DNA of 63,678 bases, counting the filler, from Stramenopiles sp. TOSAG23-6 (lineage: Eukaryota): the NCBI GenBank assembly GCA_900128565.1. It is 11 parts of 11 records of this genome, joined end to end, with 100 filler letters (N's around TTAATTAATTAA, not from the genome) between each part and the next. Parts side by side here need not be neighbours in the genome. Positions count along the whole stretch, not along the records: positions 1 to 6,185 come from LT636757.1; 10 more parts are not named here. One strand, given 5' to 3'. Under the pieces are notes generated by a model. It was not told the origin of the DNA and searched no databases. It saw only the letters and a list, made by a program, of their open reading frames with translations. A program made the position numbers and the translations under genes. This document shows positions 1,807-47,654 of this stretch, piece after piece; the first letter of the stretch is position 1; every line of letters starts with the position of its first letter.

Positions 1807-3709
1807 CTAAAGTTCTTCAGATTTCAACTTTGTAATTTTCCATGCACTCTCGTCAAGTCCTTGCAATCTTCGTACAAGAGGACTCATGAGCACATACCAA
1901 GAAATTCCACAAGCAACACAGATCACGGATAAAAGATAATATCCATCAGTTCCACGAATCTCACAACTGCCTCCAGCCGTTTCACAGTGCTTAGATCCAA
2001 GTTTACCTGCCCAATATGAACACGGGGCATATGAAATTCCACTAATATCAACAGTAGTAGTATTTACTGTACATTCTTTCTGTGTTGTATAATCCACAAG
2101 TGAAAGTACCAGAGTGATGGGCCATTTTGACCCTAAATTAGCAAATGTATTGAGAAGAGTCATATATGTCCCACCAATACCCGGTTCACTACGCGCAACA
2201 CGACTAAAAAATGACATTTGTGCGACAAACATTGAGACAGAAACAACACCATGGGCAATCATTACAAGTGTTAATACACCATAAAACATTTGTAAATTCC
2301 AAGTAGTCTCGGAATCCTTCAATGCAAAAGGGACAATATATACTAAAATAGCACCAAAGAGAGAAATAGGAAGTCTGTAAATAAATGTATTTTGGAAAAA
2401 TATTTCAAAAAAAAATTCGTTAGGTACAAAATTGCGTACGAAAAAAATTCGAAATTAAAAAAAATAAAATATACATGCTCGTAGGAAAATATTTAAAGGT
2501 CTTGGTCCTGCGGTATACTGTGAAATATATGCAGTCAATGCTATATCTATTGGAGTGATTATAGCCGAAAGAAGAGCAAGATGTTCTTTGGACACACCTG
2601 CTTCCATTAACTTCAATGCAGTAACTCCATATATTGTGAAAAATATTTTTTTTTTTTTGAATTAAATTTTTTTTTTTGAGTTGAAAAAAGATCGTTACAC
2701 ATGAAATTGTATACCAAAAAAAACATAAACGAATACACTTGAAATGAATAATGAAGCTTATGAAAACGATATAAAAAAGTCGCCAAATAGAGGGCAACTT
2801 CATCACACTAACAACCTCCTTATAAGCACCTAATACTTGAGGGATTTCTTCGTCTGTTTTTTCGTGTTTGAAAAAAATAATGTATGTTAGGAAAATATGT
2901 CAGATTTACAATTGGTTAGGTACAGAATTTACTATAGTAACCATTGGATAAAAAAGAAAAAATCGAAATTGAAATTTGAAATGAATGATTCAAACTTACA
3001 TTCCAACAGTAAAAATAAAAATAATTCCCCAGAAAATCATAAAATTACCAAGAGTTAAAAGCTTGTATGAATAGAGACATAAAAAACCAGTATAGGCAAC
3101 AAAATATCCTAGAGTTTGTCCAATTGAATTGCAGGATGATGCATATCCAATATTTCTTTTCTGAAGTAGAGTCAACGCCCAGCCGTCAACAGCAATGTCT
3201 TGAGTTGCCATGAGAAAAAATAGCAAAAAGAAGATGATAGTAAGACCCTTCACGTCAATACCATCACCATTAGACATAATCATGTCATCGACATGGCCTC
3301 CGAGAGAAATCATTAAAATTCCAGTCAAAAGCTGAACAGGTAATAACCAAGTTTTACGCCGGCCAAGGCGGTTATAAAATACTGCATCTACAATTGGAGC
3401 CCATAACACTTTTAAAGAAAAAGGCCAACTTACTAAAGAGAAAAGCGATTGATCGGTGAAAGAAGAACCCTGCTCCTGTAGCAGAAACGGAACACTCCCA
3501 GCTAAACCCATCGGAATACCCTGTAATGTATATAGAAGGAAAAGAAGAGCTACGTTTCCGTAGTCACCACGAAGATCAGCCTCTTCTGTGACTTTGGTAG
3601 GGTGACTCTCTTTTGAAGCATCCAATTCGATCGAGCTTACACCCTGTGAAGAATTGGTGGGTACTTTTGAATATGATACCGTAGACCGTTTCTTAGTGCT
3701 TGACGCCAT
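1807..3709 (-). CDS. SLC33A1: Acetyl-CoA transporter AT-1 (MFS), spliced (introns 2880-2999, about 2629-2760, 2385-2474)
   Basis: Motifs LYTLQGIPMGL, WPFSLKVLWAPIVD, ATQDIAVDGWAL, GGTYMTLLNTFANLG and DGYY. The middle junction does not resolve cleanly. Confidence 0.9.
2385..2474 (-). mobile_element. Repeated intron family copy (GT-AT)
   Basis: Removal gives RA-FIYRL. Using the nearby TTTACAG acceptor frameshifts into a stop. Confidence 0.85.
2880..2999 (-). mobile_element. Repeated intron family copy (GTAAG...CATACAT, GT-AT)
   Basis: Removal gives in-frame TVGI-IFFKHEK. Contains GTACCTAAC. Confidence 0.8.
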
Positions 3710-3991
3710 TTTCTGATCTAATCAAAATCACTGAATGATAATATTAATAATATTTCAGCTAGCTCGTGAGAAAATACCGTAGCAACTTTAGGATAAGGTA
3801 GTATAGAAAAACAACTTTGTCTTCTCGCGTCAAGTCAACTGGACTCTGGAGGAGACAAGTCAAAAAGTCGACGGTATCCTTGGTCATCTTCGGCAAAAAC
3901 AAAACACGAAAAATAAAAAAAGCAAAATTTGATATATTTATATTATTTTCAGAAATTCTACCATCATAAATGAATTATAAATATTTTTATC

Positions 3992-6185
3992 TTAAAAGAA
4001 GTATACTTGAGCATCATTCGGAAATAAAAGAGATAGAAGATTAAAGTTTAATGGACCAGACATTGGGTTATCTTGAAGATTCCTATATTTGTAGTGATAT
4101 GAAAAATATGCTGATATTAAGTCATTGAAATATAATGAATATAAAACATTGTTGATTATACTGAGTAATGCTATGATTATTACATACAAATTACGCAGTT
4201 GAGGAATTGGCAACAGGCCATAAAAGCTTGTAATTTGATTATTAAAGAGATTCCTATATTCGTAGTGATATGAAAAACATTGTAATATTGAGTCATTGAA
4301 AATATAATGAATATAAAATTTTGTTGACTATATTGAGTTATGCTGAAAGTTTTACGTACAAATCCAGCAGATTCGGAAGCTGGGGCAATCCGTTGAAGCT
4401 TCTAATTTGATTTTGTTCGAGATACCTGTATTTGTAGTGATATAAAAAATATCGTCAAATTGAGTCATTGAAAATATTGAATATAACACATTGTTGACTA
4501 TATTGAGTTATACTGAAATTATTACGTACAAACTAATCAAACTCGGAACTACTGGCAGTCCAAAAAAGCTTGTAATTTGATTATTTGAGAGATTCATATG
4601 TTTGTAGTGATATAAAAAACATTGTAGTATTGAGCCATTGAAATATAATGAATAAAAATTTTGTTGATTATATTGAGTAATGCTACAATTATTACGTACA
4701 ATTCTTCCAGTCGAGGAAATTCTCGTAGGCCATCAAAGCTTGTAATTTGATTTTGTTCGAGAAACCTATATTTGTAGTGATATAAAAACATTGTAATATT
4801 GAGTCATTGAAAATATTGAATATAACACATTGTTGACTATATTGAGTTATGCTACAATTATTACATACAAATGTCTGAGTTGAGGAAGTGCTAGTCGTAA
4901 TCCATGAAAAGTTGTAATTTGGTTATGATCGAGATGCCTATATTTGTAGTGATATGAAAAATATGCTGATATTGAGTCATTGAAATATAATGAATATAAC
5001 ATTTTGTTGATTATATTGAATTATGCTGAAATTTTACATACAAATCCTCCAGTTGAGGAAATTCTGGTAGGCCATCAAAGGATGTAATTTGATTATGATC
5101 GAGAAACCTATATTTGCAGTGATATAAAACGTTGTCATATTGAGTCATTGAAAATATTGAATATAACACATTGTTGACTATATTGAGTTATGCTGAAATT
5201 ATTACGTACAAACTCCTCAGATTCGGAAGTACTGGAAATCCATGAAAGGATGCAATTTGATTATGATTCAGAAACCTATATTTGTAGTGATATAATAACA
5301 TTGTCATATTGAGTCATTGAAAATATTGAATATAACACATTGTTGACTATATTGAGTTATGCTTAAATTATTACGTACAAACTCCTCAGATTCGGAATTA
5401 CTGGAAATCCATGAAAGGATGCAATTTGATTATTTGAGAACTTCCTATATTTGTTGTGATAGGAAAAACATTGTAATATTGAGTCATTGAAATATAATAA
5501 ATTTAAAATTTTGTTGATGATATTGAATTATGCTGAAATTTTACATACAACATCTCCAGTAAAGGAAGTTCAGGAAATCCATGAATACTTGTAATTTGAT
5601 TACTGTTGAGATACCTATATTTCTAGTGATATAAAAAACATTGTGATATTGAGTCAGTGAAATATAATAAATATAACACACTATAGACTATATTGAGTTA
5701 TGCTAAAATGTTTACGTACAAATATCTGAGTTCAGGAAGTGCTGGTGGTAATCCATCAAAGCTTGTAATTTGATTTTGTGCGAGATCCCTATATTTGTAG
5801 TGATATAAAAAACATTGTAATATTGAGTTATTGAAAATATTGAATATAACACATTGTTGAGTATATTGAGTGATGCATAAATTATTACGTACAAACTCCT
5901 CAGATTCGGAAGCTCGATTAATCCATGAAAGGATGTAATTTGATTATTTGAGAAATTCCTATATTTGTCGTGATATGAAAAACATTGTAATATTGAGTCA
6001 TTGAAATATATGGCATATAAAATTTTGTTGATGATATTGCGTAATGCTACAACTATTACGTACAATTCCAAAAGTTGAGGAAGTTCAATTAATCCATCAA
6101 AGCTTGTCATTTCATTTTGTTCGAGATGCATATATTTGTTGTGATAGGAAAAACATTGTAATATTGAGTCATTGAAATATAATAA
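3992..6185 (-). CDS. SDS22-like leucine-rich repeat protein, one 22-23 aa LRR per exon, 5'-truncated
   Basis: About 171-bp tandem units, each a 66-69 nt exon (LxLxxNQITSFxGLxxxPxLxxL) plus a roughly 104-nt phase-2 intron. The last exon ends at TAA 3992. Confidence 0.9.
4083..6185 (-). repeat. Tandem exon+intron array, about 12.5 units of about 171 bp
   Basis: Intron sequences are near-identical between units (plus-strand ATATTGAGTCATTGAAA and TTTGTAGTGATAT recur). Confidence 0.95.
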
Positions 6186-6285
6186 NNNNNNNNNNNNNNN
6201 NNNNNNNNNNNNNNNNNNNNNNNNNNNNNTTAATTAATTAANNNNNNNNNNNNNNNNNNNNNNNNNNNNNNNNNNNNNNNNNNNN
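6186..6285. other. Artificial contig spacer N44-TTAATTAATTAA-N44 (also 12467-12566, 18743-18842, 25019-25118, 31288-31387, 37551-37650, 43806-43905, 50061-50160, 56316-56415, 62571-62670)
   Basis: Identical 100-nt spacer with six-frame stop codons. Contig lengths are non-increasing (6185, 6181, 6176, 6176, 6169, 6163, 6155...). Confidence 0.98.
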
Positions 6286-7652: not shown

Positions 7653-10600
7653 ATGCATCGGGTATTCATTTTTAAACTGCATGTGGTATTATTATTAATA
7701 GTGTTTATCCTTTGCCATCTTCAGTATACTAAATCCGATGACACTTCTGCGCCTGCCGACACGGAAACTTCCTCCTCAGTTTCTCCTCTNGAGAATAAAA
7801 AAGCAACTAAGCCTAATTTAATTGAAGATAATACATCTTTGACCAACAAAGATAAAGTGGAAGATTTTTCTCGTGGTCGTGTGGTTGATGTGTACTGGAA
7901 AAAGGGAAAGGTTCTATATGGCGGCTACATTGACTTTATCAATTCAGATGGAACTTTTGATATTCAATATTTCGATGGTGACTATGAACTAAACGTGGAT
8001 GTCACTTTTATCAAGTTGCGTGAACCAGCTGTAGTTTTGGAAGAAATAGTTACTAGTAAAACAAAAAAGAATATTAAAGACTTGTTTTTCAGTTTTAGAG
8101 GAATCACAAATGAAGCTCAAGAATATTGGTTTCATAAAATGTTGTCGTTGTTACCAAAAGCAGCAGCAGAAGAATACAAAAGGTCGTCAAAGAATCCCAA
8201 ATCTCCTGATAATTCACCCTCTTGGAATAGTTCCAAATTATATCAAGAAAGTTTTCCAAAAGAGCTTTCATTTATGCGTCCAAACCAAGAAGAACCTTCA
8301 TGTTCGTTTTCATTATTCATTGCAATAATGTATTATTTTTTTCCTACCAAATTCCGTACCTAACAAATTTCAAACTGTATAAGTAGTTTTTTTACAATAC
8401 ATGGTTATTCAAGGAAACTTTCCGAAAACAAATACATTCTGATCGCTCTAAAAAGTTTCTCGATGAATTTGACCAGGCAGTGAAAAATCTAAATGACCAA
8501 AATGTGAATATTGCAGTGGTATCATTTGAAAGCCTTATTCTTAATATAAATAAATATCTTGGAGATCTTGGAAAAGAAACTCAAAAAGATGATAAGAGAA
8601 ATGAAAAGACAACTCTGCTTCAGATCAAAGCGTCTGTTGAAACAAAACTTGGTCGTATTTTGCTCTTTGGAGATTTGAAGACAGGGATGTGAANTTTTNT
8701 TTTTTTCAAATTCGATTTTTTTTTCGTACGAAATTTTGTACCTAACATTTTTTTTTCTTTGAAATATTTTTCCAAAATACATTGGACAAGACGTAAAAAG
8801 AGGGAGACAATATCTCGAAGCAGCAGCTGCATTTGGCCATCCTGTTGCTCAAAGAACATTAGCTTTATTGCCTAGTGTTGACAAAAGTACTGAAGAGAAT
8901 GAAACTCGATCAATTTTATTGCTAACGTTTGCTTCTATGTACGTTTTATTTTTTTTTCAATTTCGATTTTTTTTTTCGTACGAAGTTTTATACCTAACAA
9001 ATTTTAGTTTTTTTTTTTGAAATATTTTTCCAAAATACATGGCTGGGGATCCACAAGCATCATTAGCAATGGGATATCGACACTACAGAGGACGCGGAGT
9101 TCCTAAAAAATGTGTTACAGCTGCTGCATATTATCGCAATGCAGCTTGGCAAGCTCTTTCAGTTCGTGGATTAACCACTGATAACAATTCTATGTCAATC
9201 GATCGCTCGAAATTATTAAAACGGAGAATCGCTGATTTCAAGACTTTTTCAAAGCTTCTTTCTTTTGACTCATGTTTGTTTTCATCATGAATTTTTTTTT
9301 TCATACGAAATTTTGTACCTAATTGTTTTTTGAGTTTTTTTTTCGATATGTTTTCATCAAAAATTCTACATTTGTTTTTTTTACCACGAAAATATTGTAC
9401 CTAACTAAGTTTCTATCCAATAGAAGATATTTTTCACAGAGCATACGAGTATGCAGCTAATGTTGCGAATGATCCTACGGCAAAGGCAGCCCTTGGTGAA
9501 TTATACTTTAGAGGGGCTCCTGGTGTGTATATAAAAAAAGACGTGAATTTAGCTGAGGATTATCTCCGCGCAGCAACGAAACAAAACCAAAAACAAGCAA
9601 TGTTTACATTAGGTCAATTATTAGCAGAAACAGAGGATACTCCAAAATCTGTCGCAGCTCGNAGTTTATTAGGGAAACNTGTTAAAAAGTCTAAAAACAC
9701 TTCNCCATCATTTTTTACTTTTTTGTTGAAGAAAATAGGCGCAATAGAATTATTGGAAGATGTTCTTTCTTTATTTAATGAAGAAGACAAAGAAAACTAT
9801 GAGGAAATTACGTTACCTCCAGGTCGCTTCAAGTTTCTCGGTGGGTCTTTTTCATATGGTAATGATAGATTAGACGAAGCTTTTGCATGGTTAGAGTATG
9901 CCGCGTCTTCGGGAAATATAGATGCGATGCGTGTTCTGGGTGCAATGCATTTATATAATGTTCTCCCAGTCAATACTTTAGAAACCACATTATCGTTGGC
10001 ATCGGATTATTTAACTGAGGCAGCTAATGGAGGCAGCGGTGCTGCGTATTATGATCTTGGACTGATGTACCTTGCTGGATATGGTAAAAAAGTATCTTTT
10101 GCTAAAGCTTTCAAAATGTTTCAAAAAGGTGCTCAGACGGGTCATTCACAATCGATACTCGCAGAGTTTGAAATGGAGCTTCTTGGGCTTGGAGCTATGG
10201 AAAATGGAAATGATTGGGAAGTAGTTTGTGATAAAAAAATAAAAAAAGTGAAAAAAATTGCCGAAGAAGGTGAGTGGGGTATAAAACAATTACGAGATGC
10301 TCGTTCCCGATATATGAATCATGATGCTACAGGTGCTTTATATCGATATTTGGAGCTCGCTGGTCAAGGGTATGGAGTTGCCCAAGCGAATGCGGCTTAT
10401 TTGATGACACATCGATCCGCTGGTTTTGCTAGTTTGTTTGGAGTTTCTTCATTGTTCGAATCAGCTAAATTATTTGGTTCTTCGATTTCAGTTTTTATTT
10501 CTGAAATTACAAACATTTTGGTCTCCATCGGGAATTATAGAATGACCAAAGGTAATACTAAGCACAATAATGTCAATGTAGGATTTTTTTATGATAATGA

Positions 10601-12067
10601 CGAATCTGGTGATTCTAATAGTGATGGTGTTTGGTGTGGCAAACACCATGCAACTTCATGTAAAGCTTGTCCAGAAGGAAGTAATACTGAACAATCGATC
10701 AAAGGTTTATGTGAAGGGGATTGTAGTTGGTCTGGTAAAGTTTGTATGATGAATAAGGATCTTCTCAAAAAAGTACTTCGTGGATCTCCATTACTATCAT
10801 CGTATAATATTGGAATTCCAAATCCATTTGCTNTAGCGTATGATTTATATACCGAAGCATTATTTCAAGGGTGGCACGAAGCTGATACTCATATGGGTAA
10901 TATGTTATTTCTACAAGCGGATTTTTTACAAATATTTGGCCATTCTTCTGATAAATCAAGTTTAGATATGACTGGTCAATTTAGTAGTAATGTAGGGAAA
11001 AGACATCTTACGGGGAATTCATTTCTCTTGTATCACAAAGCAGCTGAACATTATTCCAAGGCTTTAAAGAAAAGAGACGGCCAGGCTGCGTTTTATATAG
11101 CTTATATGTTTGACACAGGTATTGGTATGCCTCGAAGTGAAAAAAAAGCAATTGGTTTGTACCACAACGCTTTTCAATTTGCAAGAATGAAAGGTGGTAT
11201 TAGTGCTTGGTGGCCTGTACACATCATGCTATTTCGTTTACGTTTGTTTAAGGCTGTATCTCGTATTGCACACGCTGGTAGAACATGTATACATCCTTTC
11301 ATTGTAATGACATCTAGTGATAATACAGAGAATGTATATCGTGATGATGGTGACTTTACACTCCAACCCTCCTATTTAGAGAAAATGAAAACTTTGGCAT
11401 TAAAATTATCTGTATTCCGTAGCTTTTTAATACTAATACCAATAATCAACAATAATTTGCGCTTTTTTGATTCATATCTTGAATCAATGGTCAAGAGATA
11501 TCCAAATGCATCACATAATGTAGAAGATACGAAAATTAAAGTTGACGCAGGTGATGCTTCAGGAATGAGTGTGGACAAGAATGGCACATCGTTAAAGGTT
11601 TATGACCGAGTGAAGGCTCAGTGGTTAAGAGGGAAAACATATTTTAATGGATACATTGATCATGTTAATGATGATGGTACTTTTGACATTCAGTATGATG
11701 ATGGGGATTATGAAGCTAGCCTTCCAGCGAAATATTTGAAAAAAATTGTCAAAAAGACTGAAACTGACAAAAATTCAGACATTTCATTATCTTCCTCTTT
11801 GAAAGCATTAGGTCAATTATTTCACTCTTCAAGTGAAGCGCTAGGTTTTTCGACGTCTCAAATCCATCGTGATGATTTTGATTTGATTCTACTTCTTTTG
11901 TGTATATTTCTTATACTGGTTTTAACCAATTGGTTTCTATGTATGTTTTATTTTTTTTTCAAATTTGAGTTTTTTTTCGTACGAAATTTTGTACCTAACG
12001 ATTTTTTTAGATTTTTTTTGAAATATTTTTCTAAAATACATCTCAACTGCACTTGATATTATTTTAA
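7653..12067 (+). CDS. Sel1-repeat HRD3/SEL1L-like type I membrane protein with two Tudor-like domains; spliced (introns 8302-8402, 8689-8782, 8939-9040, 9274 to about 9430, 11941-12041)
   Basis: Signal peptide, many Sel1 repeats, TFASMAGDPQASLAMGYRH and AGQGYGVAQANAAYL (SEL1L-like), C-terminal TM. The true 3' end is uncertain. Confidence 0.8.
8302..8402 (+). mobile_element. Repeated intron family copy (GTTCG...AATACAT)
   Basis: T|GG joins ORF 7632 to the frame of ORF 8480. Confidence 0.8.
8689..8782 (+). mobile_element. Repeated intron family copy (GTGAA...AATACAT)
   Basis: Removal restores the Sel1 repeat GDLKTGI-GQDVKRGRQYLEAAAAFGHP. Confidence 0.8.
8939..9040 (+). mobile_element. Repeated intron family copy (GT-AT)
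   Basis: Removal restores TFASMAGDPQASLAMGYR with SEL1L-like spacing. Confidence 0.85.
11941..12041 (+). mobile_element. Repeated intron family copy, near consensus
   Basis: GTATGTTTT...CGTACGAAATTTTGTACCTAAC...AAAATACAT. The flanking exon phases disagree (see findings). Confidence 0.8.
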
Positions 12068-12370: not shown

Positions 12371-12621
12371 GTATGTTTTATTTTTTTTTTATCAAAAAAA
12401 TCCAATTTTTTTTTTTATAGTAAATTTTGTACCTAACAATTTTTTTTAGATTTTTTTTGAAATATTNNNNNNNNNNNNNNNNNNNNNNNNNNNNNNNNNN
12501 NNNNNNNNNNTTAATTAATTAANNNNNNNNNNNNNNNNNNNNNNNNNNNNNNNNNNNNNNNNNNNNGTACGAAATTTTGTACCTAACGAAAAACAATTTG
12601 AAATATTTTTCCAAAATACAT

Positions 12622-15600
12622 TTGCAGCAGTAGAAATTGAAAAAGAGATGGAATCTCTCACTGTAAATCTTCATCGAATTGTACCTGAAGCTTCAGAAAA
12701 ACAAGTACAACATACACTAAATCAGTATTGTGTTGGTTTGAATAGTGATGGGAGTGCTCGAAGTCGTACTGGGTTTCCGAAAGCTATTAAAGCCCTAAAA
12801 AATGAAATTTTACGTGTAAAGATGGAAAGTATAGATGATGACTCTTCTCGTTCGAGTAGCAATGAAAATGATTCCATTCGTTCAAGTAGTGTTGAATACA
12901 GTTCGTCAAGTACAGAAAGTAAATCAAACAATATTGAAGATAAATTTGGAAGAATTTTAGAGGAAAGGAGACAGAAAAAACGTATTCGACTGAAACAAAT
13001 GGAAGATGAACGATTGCGAGTACAACAAATTGAACAAGAAAAAATGATTTCACGAAAAGTTAAAGGATTACTCGTGAAATTAAATTTACCCTCCGAAATG
13101 GTAAACACAATTATAGAAGATAAAGAATTTAAGAATGCCGCACTTGCAAAGTTGCAACTACAGGACCCTGCTGGATTAGCACAGCTTATTCAAGGCAAAA
13201 TTGCCCAGGTAAATAGTATTCGATATGGTGGTAATGGGGGTGGTGCAATCGGTGGTGTTATGAGTGCAATGGGTGCAATAGGTGGAATGCCAATGTCTCC
13301 TATGGGAATGAGCCCACATAATGTACCAAGAAACGTTGATGCACTTTCATTACTCTCCAAAGAAATGCCAAGTTTACCTGGCTTAGCCAATGTGGTAATG
13401 CAACAGCCAGTAGATGTTAAAGAAAAAATATCGTCAGATACAACAGCAAAACAACAGACGGGTAAGTTAGATGTTAAAACATTATCGCCAAAAACATCGT
13501 CAAATAAATCAACTTCAAATACAATAGAGAAGAAAAATACATCAAATAAAATAAGTGAGAGAGATATTGCTCTTCGTAAACGTCTTGCGGAAGAAGCAGC
13601 ATTAAATGGTAACCCCTTCCCCGAAAGTATTACCCAAAACAGTAATTTGAAATTAAACATTACCGTAAATAGTTTGGCAAATTCATCAAAACCATACCCC
13701 GCGCCTGCAATTCCTGAACAATTACTTAAAGAAAAAAACTTACGACAAAAAGAGTTACGCCAGCGAATTGCAGAACGAAGAAAACTCAATAAACTCGTTA
13801 CTGAAAAAGCCACAGCAAATGGAGACGTCAAAGATAAAAGTACTGAAGTATCTAAAACGTTTAATACATGGGGTCAACCTTTAATAGATGTAGAAGCAAA
13901 ACGTAAAGAGGAGTTAAATAAAAATCATCATAGAAATAAACTAAAAGGTACACCGATTACTAGTATGCAAATGGAAGAGCAATTAAGAAGCGAAATAAAG
14001 GATAACACTCGTGAACTACTATCATCTGTACGCGATACTATACCCAAAAGTGTATTTAAACCTGTGCCTGTAAAAACTGTTCGTTTTCAAGACAATATAG
14101 TACAGGAAGCAAGTAATATATTACCATCAAATATATCATCTAGTAGTAGCAGCGCTCTTCTTCATGAAAGAACGCGTATGACAATGCTTCGCCAAGAAGA
14201 AGCAGTCCAACGCCAAAGATCACATTTTGATAGTATGAAAAAAAACAAACGAAAGACTCGTGAACGGTATAGTTTTTGGTGGAGATTGATTGGAGTTGAC
14301 TCAAATTCAAGTGAACAACTTCAACGTGAACAACAGGAGCATTTACGCCCAGAGATTGAAGATCTTCTGGCTAGAGAATGCACCACTTGTCTTATCGATT
14401 CTTGGAATTGTTATGATACTGATGGTGTTGAAGGAATAGCAAATAATGTAATTCCAGATTTGTGTGAGAGTACTTTACACAATATAAAGATGGCAATTGC
14501 AAACAAATATGATTGGGGTGACACGAGTAAGAACATTACAACAGCAAGTGTTGAAAAGATTGTGGAGTCGATTTTTGACGCGCCTGATGATTTGTTGACA
14601 TATATGACTGCATATTTTATATCATCATCTGAAACAAATTGCGGGGTTTTGAGTAAGCAATCTTTCTTACGATACTTTAATGCGCACTTACATTTAAACG
14701 AAACCGAAAAAGTGGATAGTTCAAATAATAATGATAAACAGAGGAAAGATAGCCACGTTAGTACATCATTAAAATCATTGTTTTCTGTTGGAGATAGTGT
14801 TTTGTACACTGATTCTAATGACGCTGTTTTCAATGCCACTATTAAAGAGAAACATCTAGATTCCTGTACTAAAAAAGAAGGAATAGAAGAAGGGGCGTAT
14901 TACACATTGTCTTTGCCAAATGGGCGTGAGAGACAAACTTTAGAAGATCGAATATCCGTCATTAAAAACACGCCAAAAATTTCTCAATTAGTTACAAACA
15001 AACCAAGCAAAAAAATGCGACGGGAAAAGCAAGCATCTGCATTAAGTGCATTGTGGAACGAATTAGATGAATTAGCTGCAATGTCTTCGCCAAGTATGTT
15101 ACAAGCAAATGATGCAGATGACGACAGTAATAATAGGAAGCAATGGAAAAATTGCGTTGATGAATGCATAACTCAAATCAATAATAATATTGATGATGAG
15201 AAATATTCTTCAAATGAGAGTGCTATTCATAATGGTGCAAAAGTAGGAAATTCTGACAGTTCTGATTCAAATCTAAAACAAGATCAATCCGATGGTATTC
15301 GACGAGGTTCAGGATACTCTGCAGCAAAGATATACAGGAATAAGATAAAATTGAAAGGTCAACTTCAAAAAAATAAGAAAACAAAGAAGAAACGAGGCAA
15401 AAGTAGAAAAGTAGAACATCAAAAGCAACATCGAAAACAAGATCAGTATCCAGCAAAGCTATCTGGGAAACTTAGTAAAGCTATATTTAAAAAAGATATA
15501 GAACCGCAGAATATAAATAAACGATATTCTACTACACCACAAGAAAGTATAAATCCTAAGAGTATTACCAAAATGATTCCAGAGAACACTTTGATAAATA

Positions 15601-16286
15601 ATAATATACACTACACAGAAGATAAATCGTTTGAATCATTATTACATTTGGAGAAAAGAAAACTTGACGAATTACAAAAACGTCAACAATCGTATAAAAA
15701 GTTTTGTGAAGTAATAGACAAAGATAATTTAGACTTTCAGTTTAAAAACAGAAACAAAAATGATAATTTTGGAGAAAAACGTTCTCGCATTGATGATCAA
15801 TTATTTCTAGAATCAGTATCTAACAACGACATATCAAACAAAATAATATCAGTAAATAGTAATAATTTAGATTCTGATGGGAGCAACGGAAAAATTGCAT
15901 TAATGAATGCATCTCGTTTAAGGAGGTTCTATGAATTTAGGTGCCCTTCAAAAATCGGTGCTGTCGAAAAAATTCTCAAGAATAATATCGGTAAAGAAAA
16001 AGCTTTATTTTCAAAGGTTTTACGAAAATATGGAAATGTATCAAAAACTAATGAGAGGCTACAAACAGTGCAAGAAGTCATTGAATCATATGTTAGTAAA
16101 TTACCTCATGGTGTTGTGAAAAGAGCTTTAATAGACAGGGGTAATGAAGTGCTAGGTACAGAGACACAAAATCGCTCTACTCTGAAGAATACGTTACAAA
16201 ATCAAATAAATCTAGGAAAAATTGACGAAACACTTTTAGTTGCTATACTAGGTAAAAAACAATTCAAGTTATTTCGTCCATACTAA
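12622..16286 (+). CDS. Large low-complexity/coiled-coil protein of unknown function; terminal exon, 5'-truncated
   Basis: 1212-aa ORF that stays open upstream to a family intron end at 12621. Confidence 0.75.
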
Positions 16287-16414
16287 CATTAAATTAGTAG
16301 TCGTAGACTTACAAAAAGTGAAATATTAAAAAATTTTACAAATAAATGAATTCCAAGAATTTCAAATTTCAAATTTGGTGTTATGACATGAACTAGTCAG
16401 ACATTCATTCGTTC

Positions 16415-17314
16415 ATGACCATTAGGTCAGAGTCCAAATCCATGCGAAGAAGTCTCCCATATATTTTCTCTAGAATGCAATCCACGAATACGTCGACATG
16501 GACTCCTCCATCAAGTCTAGAAACAGTGTCGAATTACTCGTCATTGTTATCACTTGTGTTGTCTGCTCGCCCAATAACACCTGGTGCTGTCGTTGTATGT
16601 CCCCGACGACCTGGAATTTCGCGACTCTTGGATCTCTCTGATGATGAGTTGTTAGATATGTTTTCTACAGCACGGACTATTGTGACTTCAATGAATAACT
16701 CTATAGGTGATGCTTCAGCAGAAGGATTTAATCTCGCACTGAAAGATTCTCATGGTGCATTTTCACAGTTGCACCTTCACGTTGTCCCTCGGCGCAGTAA
16801 TGATTTTCCCGAGAATGACGAAATTTATAACCGTATTGATAAATGGCATCCAGATCTAGGAAAATGCAATATGAATAGTTTACCCCTCGATATTCCTGAA
16901 GATAGTGCTCGAACTGGGCGAACGGAAGAATCAATGGCAGAGGAAGCCATGAAATACCGATGTGCTCAACCAGGGAATACGACATGTGAAGAATTTCCAA
17001 AAGATGGAAAAGTTACTTTTGGACAACTTTCCATAGCATGCACACAAGTATTCTGGAATTCAGAGTTGTCCTTTGCTTTCGTGAATAAGTATCCTCTAGT
17101 AAATGGGCATACTTTAGTATCTCCAAGACGTCCCGTCGCTCGACTCAAAGATCTCACCACAGAAGAAGCAGATGATCTTTGGCGTAGTGTCAAAAAGGTA
17201 CAAAGTTTATTATCAACTATTTATGGCTCTGATAATTTCACGACTGGAATTCAAGATGGTCCAGTTTCTGGTCAAAGTGTATTTCATGTTCATGTCCATA
17301 TCCTGCCAATGTAA
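16415..17314 (+). CDS. Tandem double-HIT, FHIT-like dinucleoside polyphosphate hydrolase
   Basis: Two HIT domains: QLHLHVVPRR.NDF..NDEIY, and AFVNKYPLVNGHTLVSP...IQDGPVSGQSVFHVHVHILP. Confidence 0.85.
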   Translation: MTIRSESKSMRRSLPYIFSRMQSTNTSTWTPPSSLETVSNYSSLLSLVLSARPITPGAVVVCPRRPGISRLLDLSDDELLDMFSTARTIVTSMNNSIGDASAEGFNLALKDSHGAFSQLHLHVVPRRSNDFPENDEIYNRIDKWHPDLGKCNMNSLPLDIPEDSARTGRTEESMAEEAMKYRCAQPGNTTCEEFPKDGKVTFGQLSIACTQVFWNSELSFAFVNKYPLVNGHTLVSPRRPVARLKDLTTEEADDLWRSVKKVQSLLSTIYGSDNFTTGIQDGPVSGQSVFHVHVHILPM

Positions 17315-17486
17315 TTCAAAGTTTTAAATAAAAAATAAATATGTCGTAATAATTTATAAAAAATTTAAATTCGGAAGAAATTAAAAAATATAAAATATAG
17401 AAAAGTGAAAAAAATATTATGATTTACACAAACTATTTTATACTACTATATTCTTTATATACTATAACTATGTACTACTGTGATAT

Positions 17487-18542
17487 CTACATGTTGCTCG
17501 AATGACTAGAACTCATCACTGTTGCTGCTTCTAATCTACTTTCTTCATGACTCTCTGGTATTACTGCTACTCCTTCACCTTTACTACCTGAACGATATTG
17601 TAGATATTCACGAACGGATTGGATAGTTGCAGAAGGAGTATTTGATCCTTCAACTGCTATGTTTGCATCTTTAGTATTATCATTACGTAATGCAATGCAA
17701 ACATCTTCATTTGGATCTGTAAAAAATGCAAGTGATGTTCGAGTTAGAGTAGATGCTTCTTCAAGCTCTTCCTTTGATATTTTTGTTCCTTTTGAATCCG
17801 GACCTGCGACTCTGTGTATTGTTGCCTTCAATTCACCATTGGTCCATTTTGAAAGTAAACTACCTATATTCACTACTAATGCACCTTCACGATGAGGTAC
17901 TGGCACCCAAGTATTATCGTTTGCAAGTGCTTCTAATCCAACTGTTCCATCATGTATTGTGAAAAAAATATTTCAATTTTTTTTGTTAGGTACAAATTTT
18001 GGTACGAAAAAATAAATTTGAAATTCATGATGTAAAAATACAGTAGTCAGTAACGTTATACTTCCATAATCACTATGTTCTTTACACCTATTTCCCCTTG
18101 ATACATGTTCATTTTTATATGGTAAATATTGAATTAGTCTAAGCGTGTTGTTTTTTTCACTATGAAGTTTTACAAAATGCTCCTTATCATCTAGACCTAA
18201 GCCATGAGCTATACATCGTAATAATTGCTCCTTTGTTTTGTCAAGTGCTTTACAATATAGCGACAAAGTTGAAGTTGGATCAGCGTCTAATACAGCTTGT
18301 TCACCAATTAACATTGTATATTGCTTTGGATCGGTTGGGTGATCTTCAATCTTCACACAAGTTGGGGGAACTGCAAACACATTTGATGCAGCATTGACTG
18401 CATCTCTTTGCAACTGAGGAGTGAGAAAAGGAGATTCTAACAACAAAAAACCTGACGTTCGAAGAGCATTGCAACAAGCATCTGCAACAACGTCTATTTC
18501 GCCATCCTCCAAGGGAAGACGTACAATGGGAACAAACGACAT
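17487..18542 (-). CDS. 2-oxoglutarate/Fe(II) dioxygenase (IPNS/DIOX family), intron 17952-18041
   Basis: LRLIQY...EHSDYGSITLLTT|DGTVGLE...VVNIGSLLSKWTNG...ATIHRV...RTSLAFF. Confidence 0.9.
17952..18041 (-). mobile_element. Repeated intron family copy (GTATT...AATACAT)
   Basis: Removal restores the HxDxGxxTLLxxDxxxGL spacing exactly. Confidence 0.85.
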
Positions 18543-18897
18543 TCTATATAGAAATGCAATAAATGACTTTACTATGAAAATAATAATGTGNCCGCGANCC
18601 ATTTCCATTTCGATTTTGAATCGAGGATTTCGTGTGATCGATCGGAGATTTTTGTATTCATTGATTTTTTGAGATGATTTCTTTCGAGAGACTCGTGTCG
18701 TGTNCGTGTTACTCACAGTGTGAACAGAAACACAATTAGGACNNNNNNNNNNNNNNNNNNNNNNNNNNNNNNNNNNNNNNNNNNNNTTAATTAATTAANN
18801 NNNNNNNNNNNNNNNNNNNNNNNNNNNNNNNNNNNNNNNNNNGTACGAAATTTTGTACCTAACGAAAAACAATTTGAAATATTTTTCCAAAATACAT

Positions 18898-21800
18898 TTG
18901 CAGCAGTAGAAATTGAAAAAGAGATGGAATCTCTCACTGTAAATCTTCATCGAATTGTACCTGAAGCTTCAGAAAAACAAGTACAACATACACTAAATCA
19001 GTATTGTGTTGGTTTGAATAGTGATGGGAGTGCTCGAAGTCGTACTGGGTTTCCGAAAGCTATTAAAGCCCTAAAAAATGAAATTTTACGTGTAAAGATG
19101 GAAAGTATAGATGATGACTCTTCTCGTTCGAGTAGCAATGAAAATGATTCCATTCGTTCAAGTAGTGTTGAATACAGTTCGTCAAGTACAGAAAGTAAAT
19201 CAAACAATATTGAAGATAAATTTGGAAGAATTTTAGAGGAAAGGAGACAGAAAAAACGTATTCGACTGAAACAAATGGAAGATGAACGATTGCGAGTACA
19301 ACAAATTGAACAAGAAAAAATGATTTCACGAAAAGTTAAAGGATTACTCGTGAAATTAAATTTACCCTCCGAAATGGTAAACACAATTATAGAAGATAAA
19401 GAATTTAAGAATGCCGCACTTGCAAAGTTGCAACTACAGGACCCTGCTGGATTAGCACAGCTTATTCAAGGCAAAATTGCCCAGGTAAATAGTATTCGAT
19501 ATGGTGGTAATGGGGGTGGTGCAATCGGTGGTGTTATGAGTGCAATGGGTGCAATAGGTGGAATGCCAATGTCTCCTATGGGAATGAGCCCACATAATGT
19601 ACCAAGAAACGTTGATGCACTTTCATTACTCTCCAAAGAAATGCCAAGTTTACCTGGCTTAGCCAATGTGGTAATGCAACAGCCAGTAGATGTTAAAGAA
19701 AAAATATCGTCAGATACAACAGCAAAACAACAGACGGGTAAGTTAGATGTTAAAACATTATCGCCAAAAACATCGTCAAATAAATCAACTTCAAATACAA
19801 TAGAGAAGAAAAATACATCAAATAAAATAAGTGAGAGAGATATTGCTCTTCGTAAACGTCTTGCGGAAGAAGCAGCATTAAATGGTAACCCCTTCCCCGA
19901 AAGTATTACCCAAAACAGTAATTTGAAATTAAACATTACCGTAAATAGTTTGGCAAATTCATCAAAACCATACCCCGCGCCTGCAATTCCTGAACAATTA
20001 CTTAAAGAAAAAAACTTACGACAAAAAGAGTTACGCCAGCGAATTGCAGAACGAAGAAAACTCAATAAACTCGTTACTGAAAAAGCCACAGCAAATGGAG
20101 ACGTCAAAGATAAAAGTACTGAAGTATCTAAAACGTTTAATACATGGGGTCAACCTTTAATAGATGTAGAAGCAAAACGTAAAGAGGAGTTAAATAAAAA
20201 TCATCATAGAAATAAACTAAAAGGTACACCGATTACTAGTATGCAAATGGAAGAGCAATTAAGAAGCGAAATAAAGGATAACACTCGTGAACTACTATCA
20301 TCTGTACGCGATACTATACCCAAAAGTGTATTTAAACCTGTGCCTGTAAAAACTGTTCGTTTTCAAGACAATATAGTACAGGAAGCAAGTAATATATTAC
20401 CATCAAATATATCATCTAGTAGTAGCAGCGCTCTTCTTCATGAAAGAACGCGTATGACAATGCTTCGCCAAGAAGAAGCAGTCCAACGCCAAAGATCACA
20501 TTTTGATAGTATGAAAAAAAACAAACGAAAGACTCGTGAACGGTATAGTTTTTGGTGGAGATTGATTGGAGTTGACTCAAATTCAAGTGAACAACTTCAA
20601 CGTGAACAACAGGAGCATTTACGCCCAGAGATTGAAGATCTTCTGGCTAGAGAATGCACCACTTGTCTTATCGATTCTTGGAATTGTTATGATACTGATG
20701 GTGTTGAAGGAATAGCAAATAATGTAATTCCAGATTTGTGTGAGAGTACTTTACACAATATAAAGATGGCAATTGCAAACAAATATGATTGGGGTGACAC
20801 GAGTAAGAACATTACAACAGCAAGTGTTGAAAAGATTGTGGAGTCGATTTTTGACGCGCCTGATGATTTGTTGACATATATGACTGCATATTTTATATCA
20901 TCATCTGAAACAAATTGCGGGGTTTTGAGTAAGCAATCTTTCTTACGATACTTTAATGCGCACTTACATTTAAACGAAACCGAAAAAGTGGATAGTTCAA
21001 ATAATAATGATAAACAGAGGAAAGATAGCCACGTTAGTACATCATTAAAATCATTGTTTTCTGTTGGAGATAGTGTTTTGTACACTGATTCTAATGACGC
21101 TGTTTTCAATGCCACTATTAAAGAGAAACATCTAGATTCCTGTACTAAAAAAGAAGGAATAGAAGAAGGGGCGTATTACACATTGTCTTTGCCAAATGGG
21201 CGTGAGAGACAAACTTTAGAAGATCGAATATCCGTCATTAAAAACACGCCAAAAATTTCTCAATTAGTTACAAACAAACCAAGCAAAAAAATGCGACGGG
21301 AAAAGCAAGCATCTGCATTAAGTGCATTGTGGAACGAATTAGATGAATTAGCTGCAATGTCTTCGCCAAGTATGTTACAAGCAAATGATGCAGATGACGA
21401 CAGTAATAATAGGAAGCAATGGAAAAATTGCGTTGATGAATGCATAACTCAAATCAATAATAATATTGATGATGAGAAATATTCTTCAAATGAGAGTGCT
21501 ATTCATAATGGTGCAAAAGTAGGAAATTCTGACAGTTCTGATTCAAATCTAAAACAAGATCAATCCGATGGTATTCGACGAGGTTCAGGATACTCTGCAG
21601 CAAAGATATACAGGAATAAGATAAAATTGAAAGGTCAACTTCAAAAAAATAAGAAAACAAAGAAGAAACGAGGCAAAAGTAGAAAAGTAGAACATCAAAA
21701 GCAACATCGAAAACAAGATCAGTATCCAGCAAAGCTATCTGGGAAACTTAGTAAAGCTATATTTAAAAAAGATATAGAACCGCAGAATATAAATAAACGA

Positions 21801-22562
21801 TATTCTACTACACCACAAGAAAGTATAAATCCTAAGAGTATTACCAAAATGATTCCAGAGAACACTTTGATAAATAATAATATACACTACACAGAAGATA
21901 AATCGTTTGAATCATTATTACATTTGGAGAAAAGAAAACTTGACGAATTACAAAAACGTCAACAATCGTATAAAAAGTTTTGTGAAGTAATAGACAAAGA
22001 TAATTTAGACTTTCAGTTTAAAAACAGAAACAAAAATGATAATTTTGGAGAAAAACGTTCTCGCATTGATGATCAATTATTTCTAGAATCAGTATCTAAC
22101 AACGACATATCAAACAAAATAATATCAGTAAATAGTAATAATTTAGATTCTGATGGGAGCAACGGAAAAATTGCATTAATGAATGCATCTCGTTTAAGGA
22201 GGTTCTATGAATTTAGGTGCCCTTCAAAAATCGGTGCTGTCGAAAAAATTCTCAAGAATAATATCGGTAAAGAAAAAGCTTTATTTTCAAAGGTTTTACG
22301 AAAATATGGAAATGTATCAAAAACTAATGAGAGGCTACAAACAGTGCAAGAAGTCATTGAATCATATGTTAGTAAATTACCTCATGGTGTTGTGAAAAGA
22401 GCTTTAATAGACAGGGGTAATGAAGTGCTAGGTACAGAGACACAAAATCGCTCTACTCTGAAGAATACGTTACAAAATCAAATAAATCTAGGAAAAATTG
22501 ACGAAACACTTTTAGTTGCTATACTAGGTAAAAAACAATTCAAGTTATTTCGTCCATACTAA
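18898..22562 (+). CDS. Duplicate of the large unknown protein (12622-16286)
   Basis: Identical 1212-aa ORF. Confidence 0.7.
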
Positions 22563-22690
22563 CATTAAATTAGTAGTCGTAGACTTACAAAAAGTGAAAT
22601 ATTAAAAAATTTTACAAATAAATGAATTCCAAGAATTTCAAATTTCAAATTTGGTGTTATGACATGAACTAGTCAGACATTCATTCGTTC

Positions 22691-23590
22691 ATGACCATTA
22701 GGTCAGAGTCCAAATCCATGCGAAGAAGTCTCCCATATATTTTCTCTAGAATGCAATCCACGAATACGTCGACATGGACTCCTCCATCAAGTCTAGAAAC
22801 AGTGTCGAATTACTCGTCATTGTTATCACTTGTGTTGTCTGCTCGCCCAATAACACCTGGTGCTGTCGTTGTATGTCCCCGACGACCTGGAATTTCGCGA
22901 CTCTTGGATCTCTCTGATGATGAGTTGTTAGATATGTTTTCTACAGCACGGACTATTGTGACTTCAATGAATAACTCTATAGGTGATGCTTCAGCAGAAG
23001 GATTTAATCTCGCACTGAAAGATTCTCATGGTGCATTTTCACAGTTGCACCTTCACGTTGTCCCTCGGCGCAGTAATGATTTTCCCGAGAATGACGAAAT
23101 TTATAACCGTATTGATAAATGGCATCCAGATCTAGGAAAATGCAATATGAATAGTTTACCCCTCGATATTCCTGAAGATAGTGCTCGAACTGGGCGAACG
23201 GAAGAATCAATGGCAGAGGAAGCCATGAAATACCGATGTGCTCAACCAGGGAATACGACATGTGAAGAATTTCCAAAAGATGGAAAAGTTACTTTTGGAC
23301 AACTTTCCATAGCATGCACACAAGTATTCTGGAATTCAGAGTTGTCCTTTGCTTTCGTGAATAAGTATCCTCTAGTAAATGGGCATACTTTAGTATCTCC
23401 AAGACGTCCCGTCGCTCGACTCAAAGATCTCACCACAGAAGAAGCAGATGATCTTTGGCGTAGTGTCAAAAAGGTACAAAGTTTATTATCAACTATTTAT
23501 GGCTCTGATAATTTCACGACTGGAATTCAAGATGGTCCAGTTTCTGGTCAAAGTGTATTTCATGTTCATGTCCATATCCTGCCAATGTAA
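22691..23590 (+). CDS. Duplicate of the double-HIT FHIT-like protein
   Basis: Identical to 16415-17314. Confidence 0.8.
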   Translation: MTIRSESKSMRRSLPYIFSRMQSTNTSTWTPPSSLETVSNYSSLLSLVLSARPITPGAVVVCPRRPGISRLLDLSDDELLDMFSTARTIVTSMNNSIGDASAEGFNLALKDSHGAFSQLHLHVVPRRSNDFPENDEIYNRIDKWHPDLGKCNMNSLPLDIPEDSARTGRTEESMAEEAMKYRCAQPGNTTCEEFPKDGKVTFGQLSIACTQVFWNSELSFAFVNKYPLVNGHTLVSPRRPVARLKDLTTEEADDLWRSVKKVQSLLSTIYGSDNFTTGIQDGPVSGQSVFHVHVHILPM

Positions 23591-23762
23591 TTCAAAGTTT
23601 TAAATAAAAAATAAATATGTCGTAATAATTTATAAAAAATTTAAATTCGGAAGAAATTAAAAAATATAAAATATAGAAAAGTGAAAAAAATATTATGATT
23701 TACACAAACTATTTTATACTACTATATTCTTTATATACTATAACTATGTACTACTGTGATAT

Positions 23763-24818
23763 CTACATGTTGCTCGAATGACTAGAACTCATCACTGTTG
23801 CTGCTTCTAATCTACTTTCTTCATGACTCTCTGGTATTACTGCTACTCCTTCACCTTTACTACCTGAACGATATTGTAGATATTCACGAACGGATTGGAT
23901 AGTTGCAGAAGGAGTATTTGATCCTTCAACTGCTATGTTTGCATCTTTAGTATTATCATTACGTAATGCAATGCAAACATCTTCATTTGGATCTGTAAAA
24001 AATGCAAGTGATGTTCGAGTTAGAGTAGATGCTTCTTCAAGCTCTTCCTTTGATATTTTTGTTCCTTTTGAATCCGGACCTGCGACTCTGTGTATTGTTG
24101 CCTTCAATTCACCATTGGTCCATTTTGAAAGTAAACTACCTATATTCACTACTAATGCACCTTCACGATGAGGTACTGGCACCCAAGTATTATCGTTTGC
24201 AAGTGCTTCTAATCCAACTGTTCCATCATGTATTGTGAAAAAAATATTTCAATTTTTTTTGTTAGGTACAAATTTTGGTACGAAAAAATAAATTTGAAAT
24301 TCATGATGTAAAAATACAGTAGTCAGTAACGTTATACTTCCATAATCACTATGTTCTTTACACCTATTTCCCCTTGATACATGTTCATTTTTATATGGTA
24401 AATATTGAATTAGTCTAAGCGTGTTGTTTTTTTCACTATGAAGTTTTACAAAATGCTCCTTATCATCTAGACCTAAGCCATGAGCTATACATCGTAATAA
24501 TTGCTCCTTTGTTTTGTCAAGTGCTTTACAATATAGCGACAAAGTTGAAGTTGGATCAGCGTCTAATACAGCTTGTTCACCAATTAACATTGTATATTGC
24601 TTTGGATCGGTTGGGTGATCTTCAATCTTCACACAAGTTGGGGGAACTGCAAACACATTTGATGCAGCATTGACTGCATCTCTTTGCAACTGAGGAGTGA
24701 GAAAAGGAGATTCTAACAACAAAAAACCTGACGTTCGAAGAGCATTGCAACAAGCATCTGCAACAACGTCTATTTCGCCATCCTCCAAGGGAAGACGTAC
24801 AATGGGAACAAACGACAT
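23763..24818 (-). CDS. Duplicate of the 2OG-Fe(II) dioxygenase (intron 24228-24317)
   Basis: Identical to 17487-18542. Confidence 0.85.
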
Positions 24819-25187
24819 TCTATATAGAAATGCAATAAATGACTTTACTATGAAAATAATAATGTGNCCGCGANCCATTTCCATTTCGATTTTGAATCGA
24901 GGATTTCGTGTGATCGATCGGAGATTTTTGTATTCATTGATTTTTTGAGATGATTTCTTTCGAGAGACTCGTGTCGTGTNCGTGTTACTCACAGTGTGAA
25001 CAGAAACACAATTAGGACNNNNNNNNNNNNNNNNNNNNNNNNNNNNNNNNNNNNNNNNNNNNTTAATTAATTAANNNNNNNNNNNNNNNNNNNNNNNNNN
25101 NNNNNNNNNNNNNNNNNNTACGAAAATTTGTACCTAACGAATTTTTTTTTTTTCGGTAAAAAAAACAAATATTTTTTCACAATACAT

Positions 25188-41497: not shown

Positions 41498-43805
41498 ATG
41501 GCTGCAAAGCATGGTAATGAGGCTGATTTAAGTGAACCATCCACAAATATTGTTGTTTGTGATAATGGAACTGGCTTTGTACGTTTTTATAACCGTGTTT
41601 GTCCCCCCCTTTATGAATTGTAGTACTATTTCGTCTCTTTGTTACATTAGTTTCACTGTTTAGTTTCCATTTGACTTGTCAACAGTGTACTAACATCTTC
41701 TTTCAATATATAATAACACAAACTTTACAGGTTAAATGCGGATACGCTGGTGATAACTTTCCTCGCCATGAATTTGCATCAATGGTAGGTCGTCCAATGC
41801 TTCGCGCTGAAGAAGGAGATATTGGTGATATCAAATTAAAAGATGTCATGGTCGGCGACGAAGCAGAAAAAGCCAGAAAGTATTTAGAAATTCGATATCC
41901 TGTTGATGAAGGTATTGTAAAACATTGGGAAGATATGGAACATTTGTACGACTACACCTTTCATGATAAACTTAACCTTCCAAGCGTTTGTCAAGGCAAT
42001 CGAATTATGCTGACGGAAGCTCCACTCAATCCAAAAAAAAATAAGGAAAAATTTTGTGAGTATATGTTTGAAAAATATGGATTTGCTAGTATGCAAGTAC
42101 AAACTCAAGCAATGCTTACTTTATATGCACAAGGTTTATTAACTGGTGTTGTTTTGGATTCTGGTGATGGTGTTACTCATGTGGTTGCGGTGTATGATGG
42201 TTATGTCCCTCAACAACTTACTCGTATGTTTTTTTTTTTTTGGGGTTTTGGTACGAAATTTCATACCTAACAAATTTTCAAAATTTTTTATTTTTTTTTC
42301 AAAATTTTATTTTTTTTTCAATTTTGTTTTTATTCTCTCTATAATAATATTTTTTTTTGTTTGTACAACTAACAATATTCATTCATTTTGATAGACTATT
42401 CTACACTAAAGGACGTCTTAATTTAGCTGGTCGGCACGTTACCCGGCACCTCATTGAACAATTACAAATGAGAGGATATGTACGTTTTTTTTTTTTTTTT
42501 TGCATAATTTTTTTTTCGTACGTAATTTTGTACCTAACCAAAAAAAAAAAAAATTGTACAAAAAAAATATTTTTTCATAATATATGCTTTTAATAGCACA
42601 GCTGATTTTGAAACGGTTCGTCGAGTAAAGGAAGATATATGTTATGTAGCATATGATGTAAAAAAAGAAAGACAATTGGCTGAAGAGACGACTGCATGTA
42701 TGTTATTATCATTTTATCATTTATATTTTTTTATATTTTTGAAATTTTTGAAAATTTTTTTTTTGAAATTTTTAAAATTTTAAAATTTTTTTGAATTTTT
42801 GGATGAATCAAATTCGTTTTTTTTTCATCTATCCAATTTCAAGGATCCAAAATTTTAAACACCATTCAATACAATCCTCAACAAATATATACTTTAGAGT
42901 TTTTTTATTTTAGATTCAAAAAAAAAACGTAAATGAATATTTTCATGATTCATTTCAAATTAATTTCAATTTTTTTTTTTTTTTTTTTTCATACGAAATT
43001 TCATACCTAACAAAAAAAAATGTCCAAAAAAAAAAAAAATATTTTTTCACAGTATTGTAATGAAAGAGTATAAATTACCAGATGGACGAATCATTACTGC
43101 TGGGCGAGAACGATTTGAAGTAGCTGAATTGATGTTTACACCTGAAAATGGAGGTGTTACTGGAGATGGTGTGTCTGATATGATGTATGTTTTTTTTTTT
43201 GATTTCGTGTTTTTTTTTAAATATTTTTTTCATACGAAATTTTGTACGTAACAAAAAATAATAATATTGTACAATATTTTTCAAAATACATATTTAATAT
43301 GATTCAATCAGCGGAAATTGATTTAAGAATGGATCTGTATAAACATATTGTGTTATCAGGCGGATCTACTATGTACGTTATTATTATTATTATAATTGTT
43401 TTTTTCATATATTTTTTTGTACAAAAAATTTCAAAAAAAAGTTAAATTTTTTTTTTTTTTTAGATTTTTTTTTTTTTTAGAATTTTTTTTTTTTTTTGTA
43501 TACCAAATAATATTTCTAAAAAAATGTAATACTATACATTATTTTTAAACAATACATGTTTCCTGGTTTTCCAACACGTGTTGAAAAAGATATGAAAACG
43601 CGATATTTAAATGAAATTTTGCATGGTGATAAAAGGAAATTGAGTAAATTCAGATTAGGTATCGAAGATCCACCACGAAGGAAAAATATGTACGTTTTTT
43701 TATTTCATGATGAATTTCAAATTTTTTTTTTTTTTTTTGTATGAAATTTTCGTACTAAAAAAAAAAATTTTTTATTTTTTTTTTTTTTTTACCCGAAATT
43801 TTTTT
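41498..43805 (+). CDS. ARP2: Actin-related protein 2, 7 introns, 3'-truncated
   Basis: [70 protein letters not shown]. Introns: 41579-41730 (GT-AG), 42224-42411 (GT-AG), 42480-42585 (GT-AT), 42698-43057 (GT-TG), 43185-43291 (GT-AT), 43373-43557 (GT-AT), and one starting at 43690. Confidence 0.95.
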
Positions 43806-44641: not shown

Positions 44642-45067
44642 ATTGTTGAATTAATCTATTTTGTAGCGATCTCGTATAATCTAAATTGCACTGAAGAAAG
44701 AAGAGAAAGATTCACCAAGAAAAAGTGAACAACTTGTCATTCGAAATTTCGAAATTATCGCAAAAAAATTTAATCTCAAAAATTTTCGATTTATAGGTAC
44801 CGGGTACACACGGCACACTTTCATTTTTGCTATTTTTTCATGACATGATGGCCGTAAAGCTGAATCGATTGTTGATGTTCGTGACATGACATGATTGGTC
44901 TGACACTCGGCAAGACGCTGTCCACTTTAGTTTTGGTTAACATTGATTTCTATTTATTTGTTTGCGATATTTTTGGAGAATAGCTTTTCATAGTTGTTAT
45001 TTTGTTGATAGCCCTATACATAAGAGTTACTGTGTCATTCGTATAGACTTCTTTGGCACTTGATACA

Positions 45068-47577: not shown

Positions 47578-47654
47578 ANAACAAAAATGATTCAACACAA
47601 ATTTTATCAAAATCAGAAGAGCGAAAAAAATTTCATTTATTAGCGATTCAGAAA

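Follow-up and report, generated by a model that had tools for sequence, protein, structure and literature searches.

In hosts with strict GT-AG splicing, mutation of a 3' AG to AT makes the exon be skipped or shifts the cut to the following AG. The closest described systems with other 3' ends are the fritillariid larvaceans, for whose non-canonical introns the original paper is reportedly that of Henriet et al. 2019. Use of a 3' AT by the U2 spliceosome, as a property of the host, is already published for the Fritillariidae. According to PMC13326754, only 5% of introns in Fritillaria borealis are GT/AG, AG/AC and AG/AT dominate in that species, and AT is the commonest 3' end (44% in F. pellucida and 34% in F. 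borealis). The same source describes a YAY triplet as the last three bases of the Fritillaria non-canonical introns, a regular U-rich tract that precedes the 3' AT in fritillariids, and divergent U2AF paralogues that bind non-canonical 3' ends (also preprint 10.1101/2025.08.15.670264). It reports larvaceans to lack the U12 system, and lists 'splice site erosion' among the possible sources of divergent sites, together with weak-site introners. In the review PMC11282704, the non-canonical fritillariid introns are said to derive from MITEs and to remain unspliced in human cells, and introners (in Micromonas and others) to supply one splice site, the other coming from the target-site duplication. 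A literature search for the phrase 'GT-AT introns' found no paper.

The window analysed here, the whole stretch of 63,678 bases from Stramenopiles sp. TOSAG23-6, consists of eleven separate contigs joined by ten linkers, each N44-TTAATTAATTAA-N44. The first ten contigs decrease in length from 6185 to 6155 bases; the eleventh, of 1008 bases, is truncated where the window ends. Several contigs are duplicates: 12567-18742 is identical to 18843-25018, and both 50161-56315 and 56416-62570 match 43906-50060 either fully or at 99.98%. Rfam gave 0 matches within the window, snRNA included, and no spliceosome genes were found in it.

Table 1. Coordinates of the features discussed, counted along the window; a slash marks an exon border.
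Feature	Position	Strand	Remark
LRR-gene tandem exon-intron array	4083..6185	-	12 complete 22/23-codon exons, 12 complete introns and one partial
Terminal exon of the array (..NLQDNPMSGPLNFNLLSLLFPNDAQVYFF)	3992..4082	-	stop codon TAA at 3994-3992
AT replacing AG acceptor, intron ...ATATAT/G, before exon E01	6130..6131	-	last intron base 6130
AT replacing AG acceptor, intron ...ACATAT/G, before exon E10	4596..4597	-	last intron base 4596; polymorphic as far as a depth-2 AG allele indicates
Exon E01 (LHLEQNEMTSFDGLIELPQLLE) behind AT acceptor	6064..6129	-	open; 9/11 consensus positions matched
Exon E10 (LNLSNNQITSFFGLPVVPSLIS) behind AT acceptor	4530..4595	-	open; 11/11 consensus positions matched
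Representative canonical array intron (GTATGTAA...ATATAG)	4766..4868	-	no significant RNA fold, z = 0.74
Candidate cryptic acceptor, in frame	4569..4570	-	first AG past the 4596 AT end, 27 nt into E10
Candidate cryptic acceptor, in frame	6103..6104	-	first AG past the 6130 AT end, 27 nt into E01
ARP2 intron 1, non-family GT...AG, TACTAAC branch motif	41579..41730	+	AG and AT ends in one gene
ARP2 intron 3, introner family, GT...ATATAT/G	42480..42585	+	3' heptamer identical to LRR site 6130
Transporter intron 3, introner family, GT...ACAT/	2385..2474	-	RAFIYRLP against human KAMPYRLL
Introner copies, examples	2385-2474(-), 8695-8783, 11939-12041, 25327-25425, 27434-27525(-), 43185-43291		
Introner copies at contig ends	1-55, 6286-6342, 12370-12458, 12567-12623, 25119-25150, 43906-43997		
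Linkers	6186-6285, 12467-12566, 18743-18842 and so on		

The LRR array lies in contig 1 (1-6185), the end of which truncates it upstream. In the TRF output it appears as a tandem repeat of 170 bp spanning 4077-6181 (12.3 copies, 79% matches). Complete exons (n = 12) are 66 nt (10) or 69 nt (2) long and each encodes one 22- or 23-residue LRR. As stated in the initial annotation, the exons are symmetric: all are in phase 2-2, with TT closing the upstream exon and G opening the next. Twelve introns are complete, at 102-106 nt, and the thirteenth is truncated at 6185. The donor reads GTAYGTAA in 12 of 12 cases. At the 13 acceptors we find ATATAG/G ten times, ATACAG/G once (4426) and TAT/G twice, all in one alignment column, which confirms the earlier count of eleven AG and two AT acceptors at a homologous position. 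Both AT ends are thus TAT, a YAY triplet. A T run of 4-6 bases stands about 14-20 nt upstream of the LRR intron 3' end and is followed by ATATCACTACAAATAT. The G-to-T change at 4595-4597 and at 6129-6131 (minus strand) also makes an in-frame ATG across the intron-exon border, which is probably meaningless. An exact-pattern scan of metagenome contigs with a 24-base intron motif returned 0 stretches.

Over the 12 exons the repeat consensus is.L..NQITSF.GL...P.L.. and the repeated LxxLxLxxN scaffold of LRR proteins of the 22-residue LxLxxNxIxx.. type is present. The two exons behind AT acceptors had been described as intact LRRs, and both are (Table 1); the remaining ten complete exons score 8-11 of the 11 LRR consensus positions, and E01 and E10 look no worse than their sisters. 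This comparison has little power, the exons being short, their skipping in frame and the T at 4596 seemingly recent. With symmetric exons in a protein that is itself a repeat array, the loss of one exon by skipping would do no harm, and little can be concluded from the exons' intact state.

A search of public runs listed 17, of which 14 held some part of the stretch; it is present in runs labelled as one organism, in several metagenomes labelled seawater or marine, and in a single metatranscriptome, the latter being the one RNA run (X8, share 0.07). Four runs were compared with 3780-6185, among them X1, which is possibly the source sample. At 4596 both X1 (depth 6.9) and X3 (depth 5.3), an independent metagenome from seawater, show the window's letter, A on the plus strand, and neither has an alternative letter. 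The X4 contig over this position, with a depth of only 2, carries a plus-strand C, equivalent to a coding G and an AG acceptor. It shows three differences in 342 nt and keeps a unit-specific C three bases upstream, so that it represents an allele and not another repeat unit. A second variant, the plus-strand change C>G at 4724 (codon CGA becomes CCA, replacing R with P at one of the variable positions in E09), is common to X3 and X4, which implies at least three haplotypes, two of them with T at 4596. Position 4596 therefore looks AG/AT polymorphic, the AG allele being that of the depth-2 X4 contig. Given this AG allele the T appears young, and the intact state of E10 is then uninformative.

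The initial annotation had raised the possibility that the T's are consensus errors. The assembly is a draft, with single N's in other contigs, and 6130 is covered by one contig of X1 only, yet the T at 4596, found in two independent samples, is real DNA and an error there is excluded. At 6130, where the X1 contig has a depth of 12.3 and shows no difference, an error is unlikely. Taken over both sites, assembly or consensus error is a very improbable explanation.

The RNA run contributed three contigs over 3780-6185, of which those at 5233-5383 and 5448-5598 are unspliced and colinear through introns. No splice joints were present over 3780-6185 in any of the four runs, and X8 had no cover at 4530-4595 or 6064-6129. 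Since X8 may contain DNA and leaves the AT sites uncovered, it speaks neither for nor against splicing.

The setting within the window speaks for use of the AT sites. Junctions were fixed by alignment to solved structures and scripted splicing for the nine complete introns of two conserved genes, encoding ARP2 and an acetyl-CoA transporter. Six of the nine need GT...AT to preserve the frame and the spacing seen in homologues, two are GT...AG (ARP2 introns 1 and 2) and one, transporter intron 2, is readable as AT or AG. ARP2 introns 3, 4, 5 and 6 need GT...AT for the ARP2 register, giving RGY/AFN, TTACM/KEY, SDM-I-FN and GGSTM/FPG. ARP2 intron 2 (42224-42411, plus strand) begins with the introner 5' part and continues to an AG end. 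ARP2 intron 4 (42702-43061, plus strand, 360 nt) looks like a composite of two elements; its donor, GTTATT, is weak, and it ends in AAT, which is not YAY. In the transporter gene, intron 1 offers no in-frame AG option, the basis here being frame alone; exon 2 has no PDB match, and its two flanking junctions therefore rest on the reading frame. Ten nucleotides past the AT of transporter intron 3 there is a canonical-looking acceptor, TTTATTTACAG (TTTACAG; 2375-2384, minus strand), that is out of frame, and if the gene works the AT end would be preferred over a good AG.

These two genes strongly imply that the host tolerates AT ends, because with AT introns needed in ARP2 and in the transporter it must cleave after AT, efficiently, in essential genes. 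The earlier proposal, that AT tolerance is a property of the host spliceosome and not only of the mobile element, is partly supported. The six of nine fixed introns that need AT favour it; against it, every fixed AT intron is an introner-family copy or remnant.

The introner family is about 95 nt long, with about 40 matches listed on unique contigs, some of them overlapping. Its consensus is GTATGT..CGTACGAAATTTTGTACCTAAC..T-run..AAATACAT, with a CCTAAC branch-like motif and T8-T10 runs. The aligned copies start with GTATGTTTTA, share the central CGTACGAAATTTTGTACCTAAC and a T run, and end in ...CCAAAATACAT, after which similarity stops. As the window is a set of concatenated contigs, the family sits on other contigs besides contig 1, and contigs that start or stop inside copies indicate that the element breaks the assembly. 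Most copies have AT just upstream, as if it were a duplicated target, so that the intron can be written GT...AT or AT...AC. One copy (17952-18040, minus strand) lies beside an exon for a 2OG-Fe(II) oxygenase (Pfam PF03171); with CT closing its upstream flank, this copy could independently pin the register to GT...AT. An automatic frame test on 23 introner copies was dropped as too permissive, the T-rich element being open in several frames. An introner copy used as BLAST query (word size 7, E<=1e-3) found no match inside 4000-6185, and the array intron is accordingly unrelated to the family, as had been supposed; its T run falls short of the introner's T8-T10 runs.

With regard to the cleavage register, the upstream exon ends in AT in six of seven candidate AT introns (six of the seven being fixed, and the exception being transporter intron 2), and AT...AC would yield the same mRNA for four of the six fixed AT introns. 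The LRR exons end in TT, which rules out AT...AC at those sites, although this is relevant only if they are spliced. The initial argument that TT fixes the register as GT...AT thus holds in so far as AT...AC is concerned, but TG..TA, GT..AT and TA..TG all yield the same mRNA at the LRR sites. The perfect GTAYGT donors independently argue for GT...AT. The LRR AT introns would share termini other than GT-AG with the AT-AC introns (U12-type and, rarely, U2-type), but differ from the U12-type in having GTAYGTAA donors after TT and no ATATCC 5' motif.

An alternative is that the two AT ends are dead acceptors, with the downstream exon skipped or the in-frame AG 27 nt into the exon used instead. The protein would then be one repeat shorter or would carry a 13-residue half repeat, and since all outcomes are in frame they would be tolerated. 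The case resembles classical AG-to-AT mutations: the base change is the same, the downstream exon is symmetric (66 or 69 nt throughout, phase 2-2) and a candidate cryptic AG follows 27 nt on, the last 55 bases of both AT introns having no AG at all. The T at 4596 is polymorphic, hence probably recent, and 11 of the 13 sister introns keep AG. The difference lies in the host, which here needs AT introns in ARP2 and the acetyl-CoA transporter, one of them with the identical ATATAT/G, so that loss of function at the LRR sites is not to be assumed. E01, for which no AG allele is known, nevertheless keeps its score of 9 of 11 consensus positions. The terminal G, moreover, changed twice in 13 introns, where the last 20 columns average 0.9 changes each, and is thus no better conserved than its neighbours; both changes are G-to-T, and the A at -2 is unchanged in all 13. 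On this evidence we consider dead acceptors unlikely, though the main alternative.

The array, or this copy of it, could also be no working gene, being a decaying paralogue or a satellite-like amplification in which the G-to-T changes are neutral hits. The summed word depth of the array intron segments in X1 is 146-333, against about 7 in the flanks, which means that many more copies exist. In one X1 contig, 4813 is followed by 11 other letters and then by 4655, and at 4680, 4765, 4813 and 4961 several contigs diverge into unlike sequence; these joins and branches point to paralogous arrays or to arrays arranged differently elsewhere in the genome. Over the array the RNA library yields unspliced contigs only, and the gene's 5' part is absent from contig 1. 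Against this stand 13 open, in-phase exons with a proper terminal exon and stop codon, 12 donors and 13 A(-2) bases that are all intact, and the substitution pattern of the exons. Pooled over 66 exon pairs, pS between repeats is 0.39 and pN is 0.30, and there are 0 stops or frameshifts in 13 exons despite this divergence. At 11 conserved scaffold positions pN is 0.11, as opposed to 0.50 at 10 variable positions, corresponding to pN/pS of about 0.3 and about 1.2. Such values agree with an LRR protein whose scaffold is constrained while its surface residues change fast, and comparison of the exons shows that the repeats carry past protein-level selection. A non-functional array is, in our estimate, improbable.

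Pfam LRR_4 scored 25.6 bits (E 1.4e-5) and 15.3 bits on single-repeat read-through ORFs, which were the query in place of the spliced protein, with a cut-off of 27; scores below threshold are expected for isolated repeats. For the read-through ORF at 5715-6185 (minus strand; E01 and E02), 33 word-sharing candidates were compared and none reached E<=0.001 among proteins of 86-275 residues. Within the array the introns have a mean pairwise difference of 0.13, compared with an exon synonymous pS of 0.39, and the intron is more alike than the exon in 62 of 66 unit pairs. Possible reasons are that introns are homogenised while exons diversify, or that the intron is itself constrained.

Since the terminal G shows no sign of protection, both G-to-T changes give the YAT end used by the host, and the T allele at 4596 occurs in independent samples, use of the AT ends is the most likely reading. 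We infer that both introns are spliced in this way, and give an even chance to their removal as GT...AT with E01 and E10 kept. The 3' part of the LRR gene would have been built through tandem duplication of an exon-plus-intron unit, after which two conventional GT...AG introns would have undergone G-to-T at the last base, in different contexts (ATATAT and ACATAT). Given a host spliceosome that routinely cleaves after a pyrimidine-A-T triplet, TAT in place of TAG most likely still serves as a 3' splice site. The mutation may then be nearly neutral, which would agree with AG and AT still segregating at 4596, assuming that the depth-2 X4 allele is real. The process would amount to an erosion of splice sites where the rule for 3' ends has been relaxed. 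More tentatively, at somewhat less than an even chance, we propose that a point mutation converted a conventional GT-AG intron to GT-AT and that AG and AT alleles at 4596 segregate in the wild. AT ends could still be recognised in an element-specific way, as the LRR intron has neither the introner CCTAAC motif nor its long T run nor its ..AAATACAT end.

Any link between the window and the Fritillariidae is one of resemblance only. As in fritillariids, the introns in question end in Y-A-T, AG and AT introns occur in one genome, the organism is marine and planktonic, and most AT introns appear to come from an introner or MITE. Unlike those of fritillariids, the LRR AT ends would have originated as point substitutions within conventional introns that do not derive from a transposon. 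Where a MITE or introner would leave terminal repeats and a target duplication, the LRR exons close with TT and these introns with AT. A further difference from F. borealis is GT at every inferred 5' end (12 LRR donors, and nine complete introns and one partial intron of the two other genes). The window's own family, starting with GTATGT, ending in ..ACAT and mostly with AT upstream, is like the introners that take one splice site from a target-site duplication, whereas the LRR intron has no similarity to the family and no matching flanking duplication.

As 3' AT use has been described before, the gain from this locus is a well-controlled example and not a new principle. Should the AT ends be spliced, relaxed 3' recognition would act on an intron without transposon ancestry, a property of the spliceosome would be separated from one of the mobile element, and splice-site erosion would have been caught as a live polymorphism. 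The locus would then also fix the register as GT...AT rather than AT...AC, and the AG and AT alleles at 4596 would permit a within-species, allele-specific measure of AT against AG efficiency. It would also mean that the terminal G of ordinary introns drifts free once a spliceosome reads YAT ends, erosion then being a source of non-canonical introns besides the insertion of transposons.
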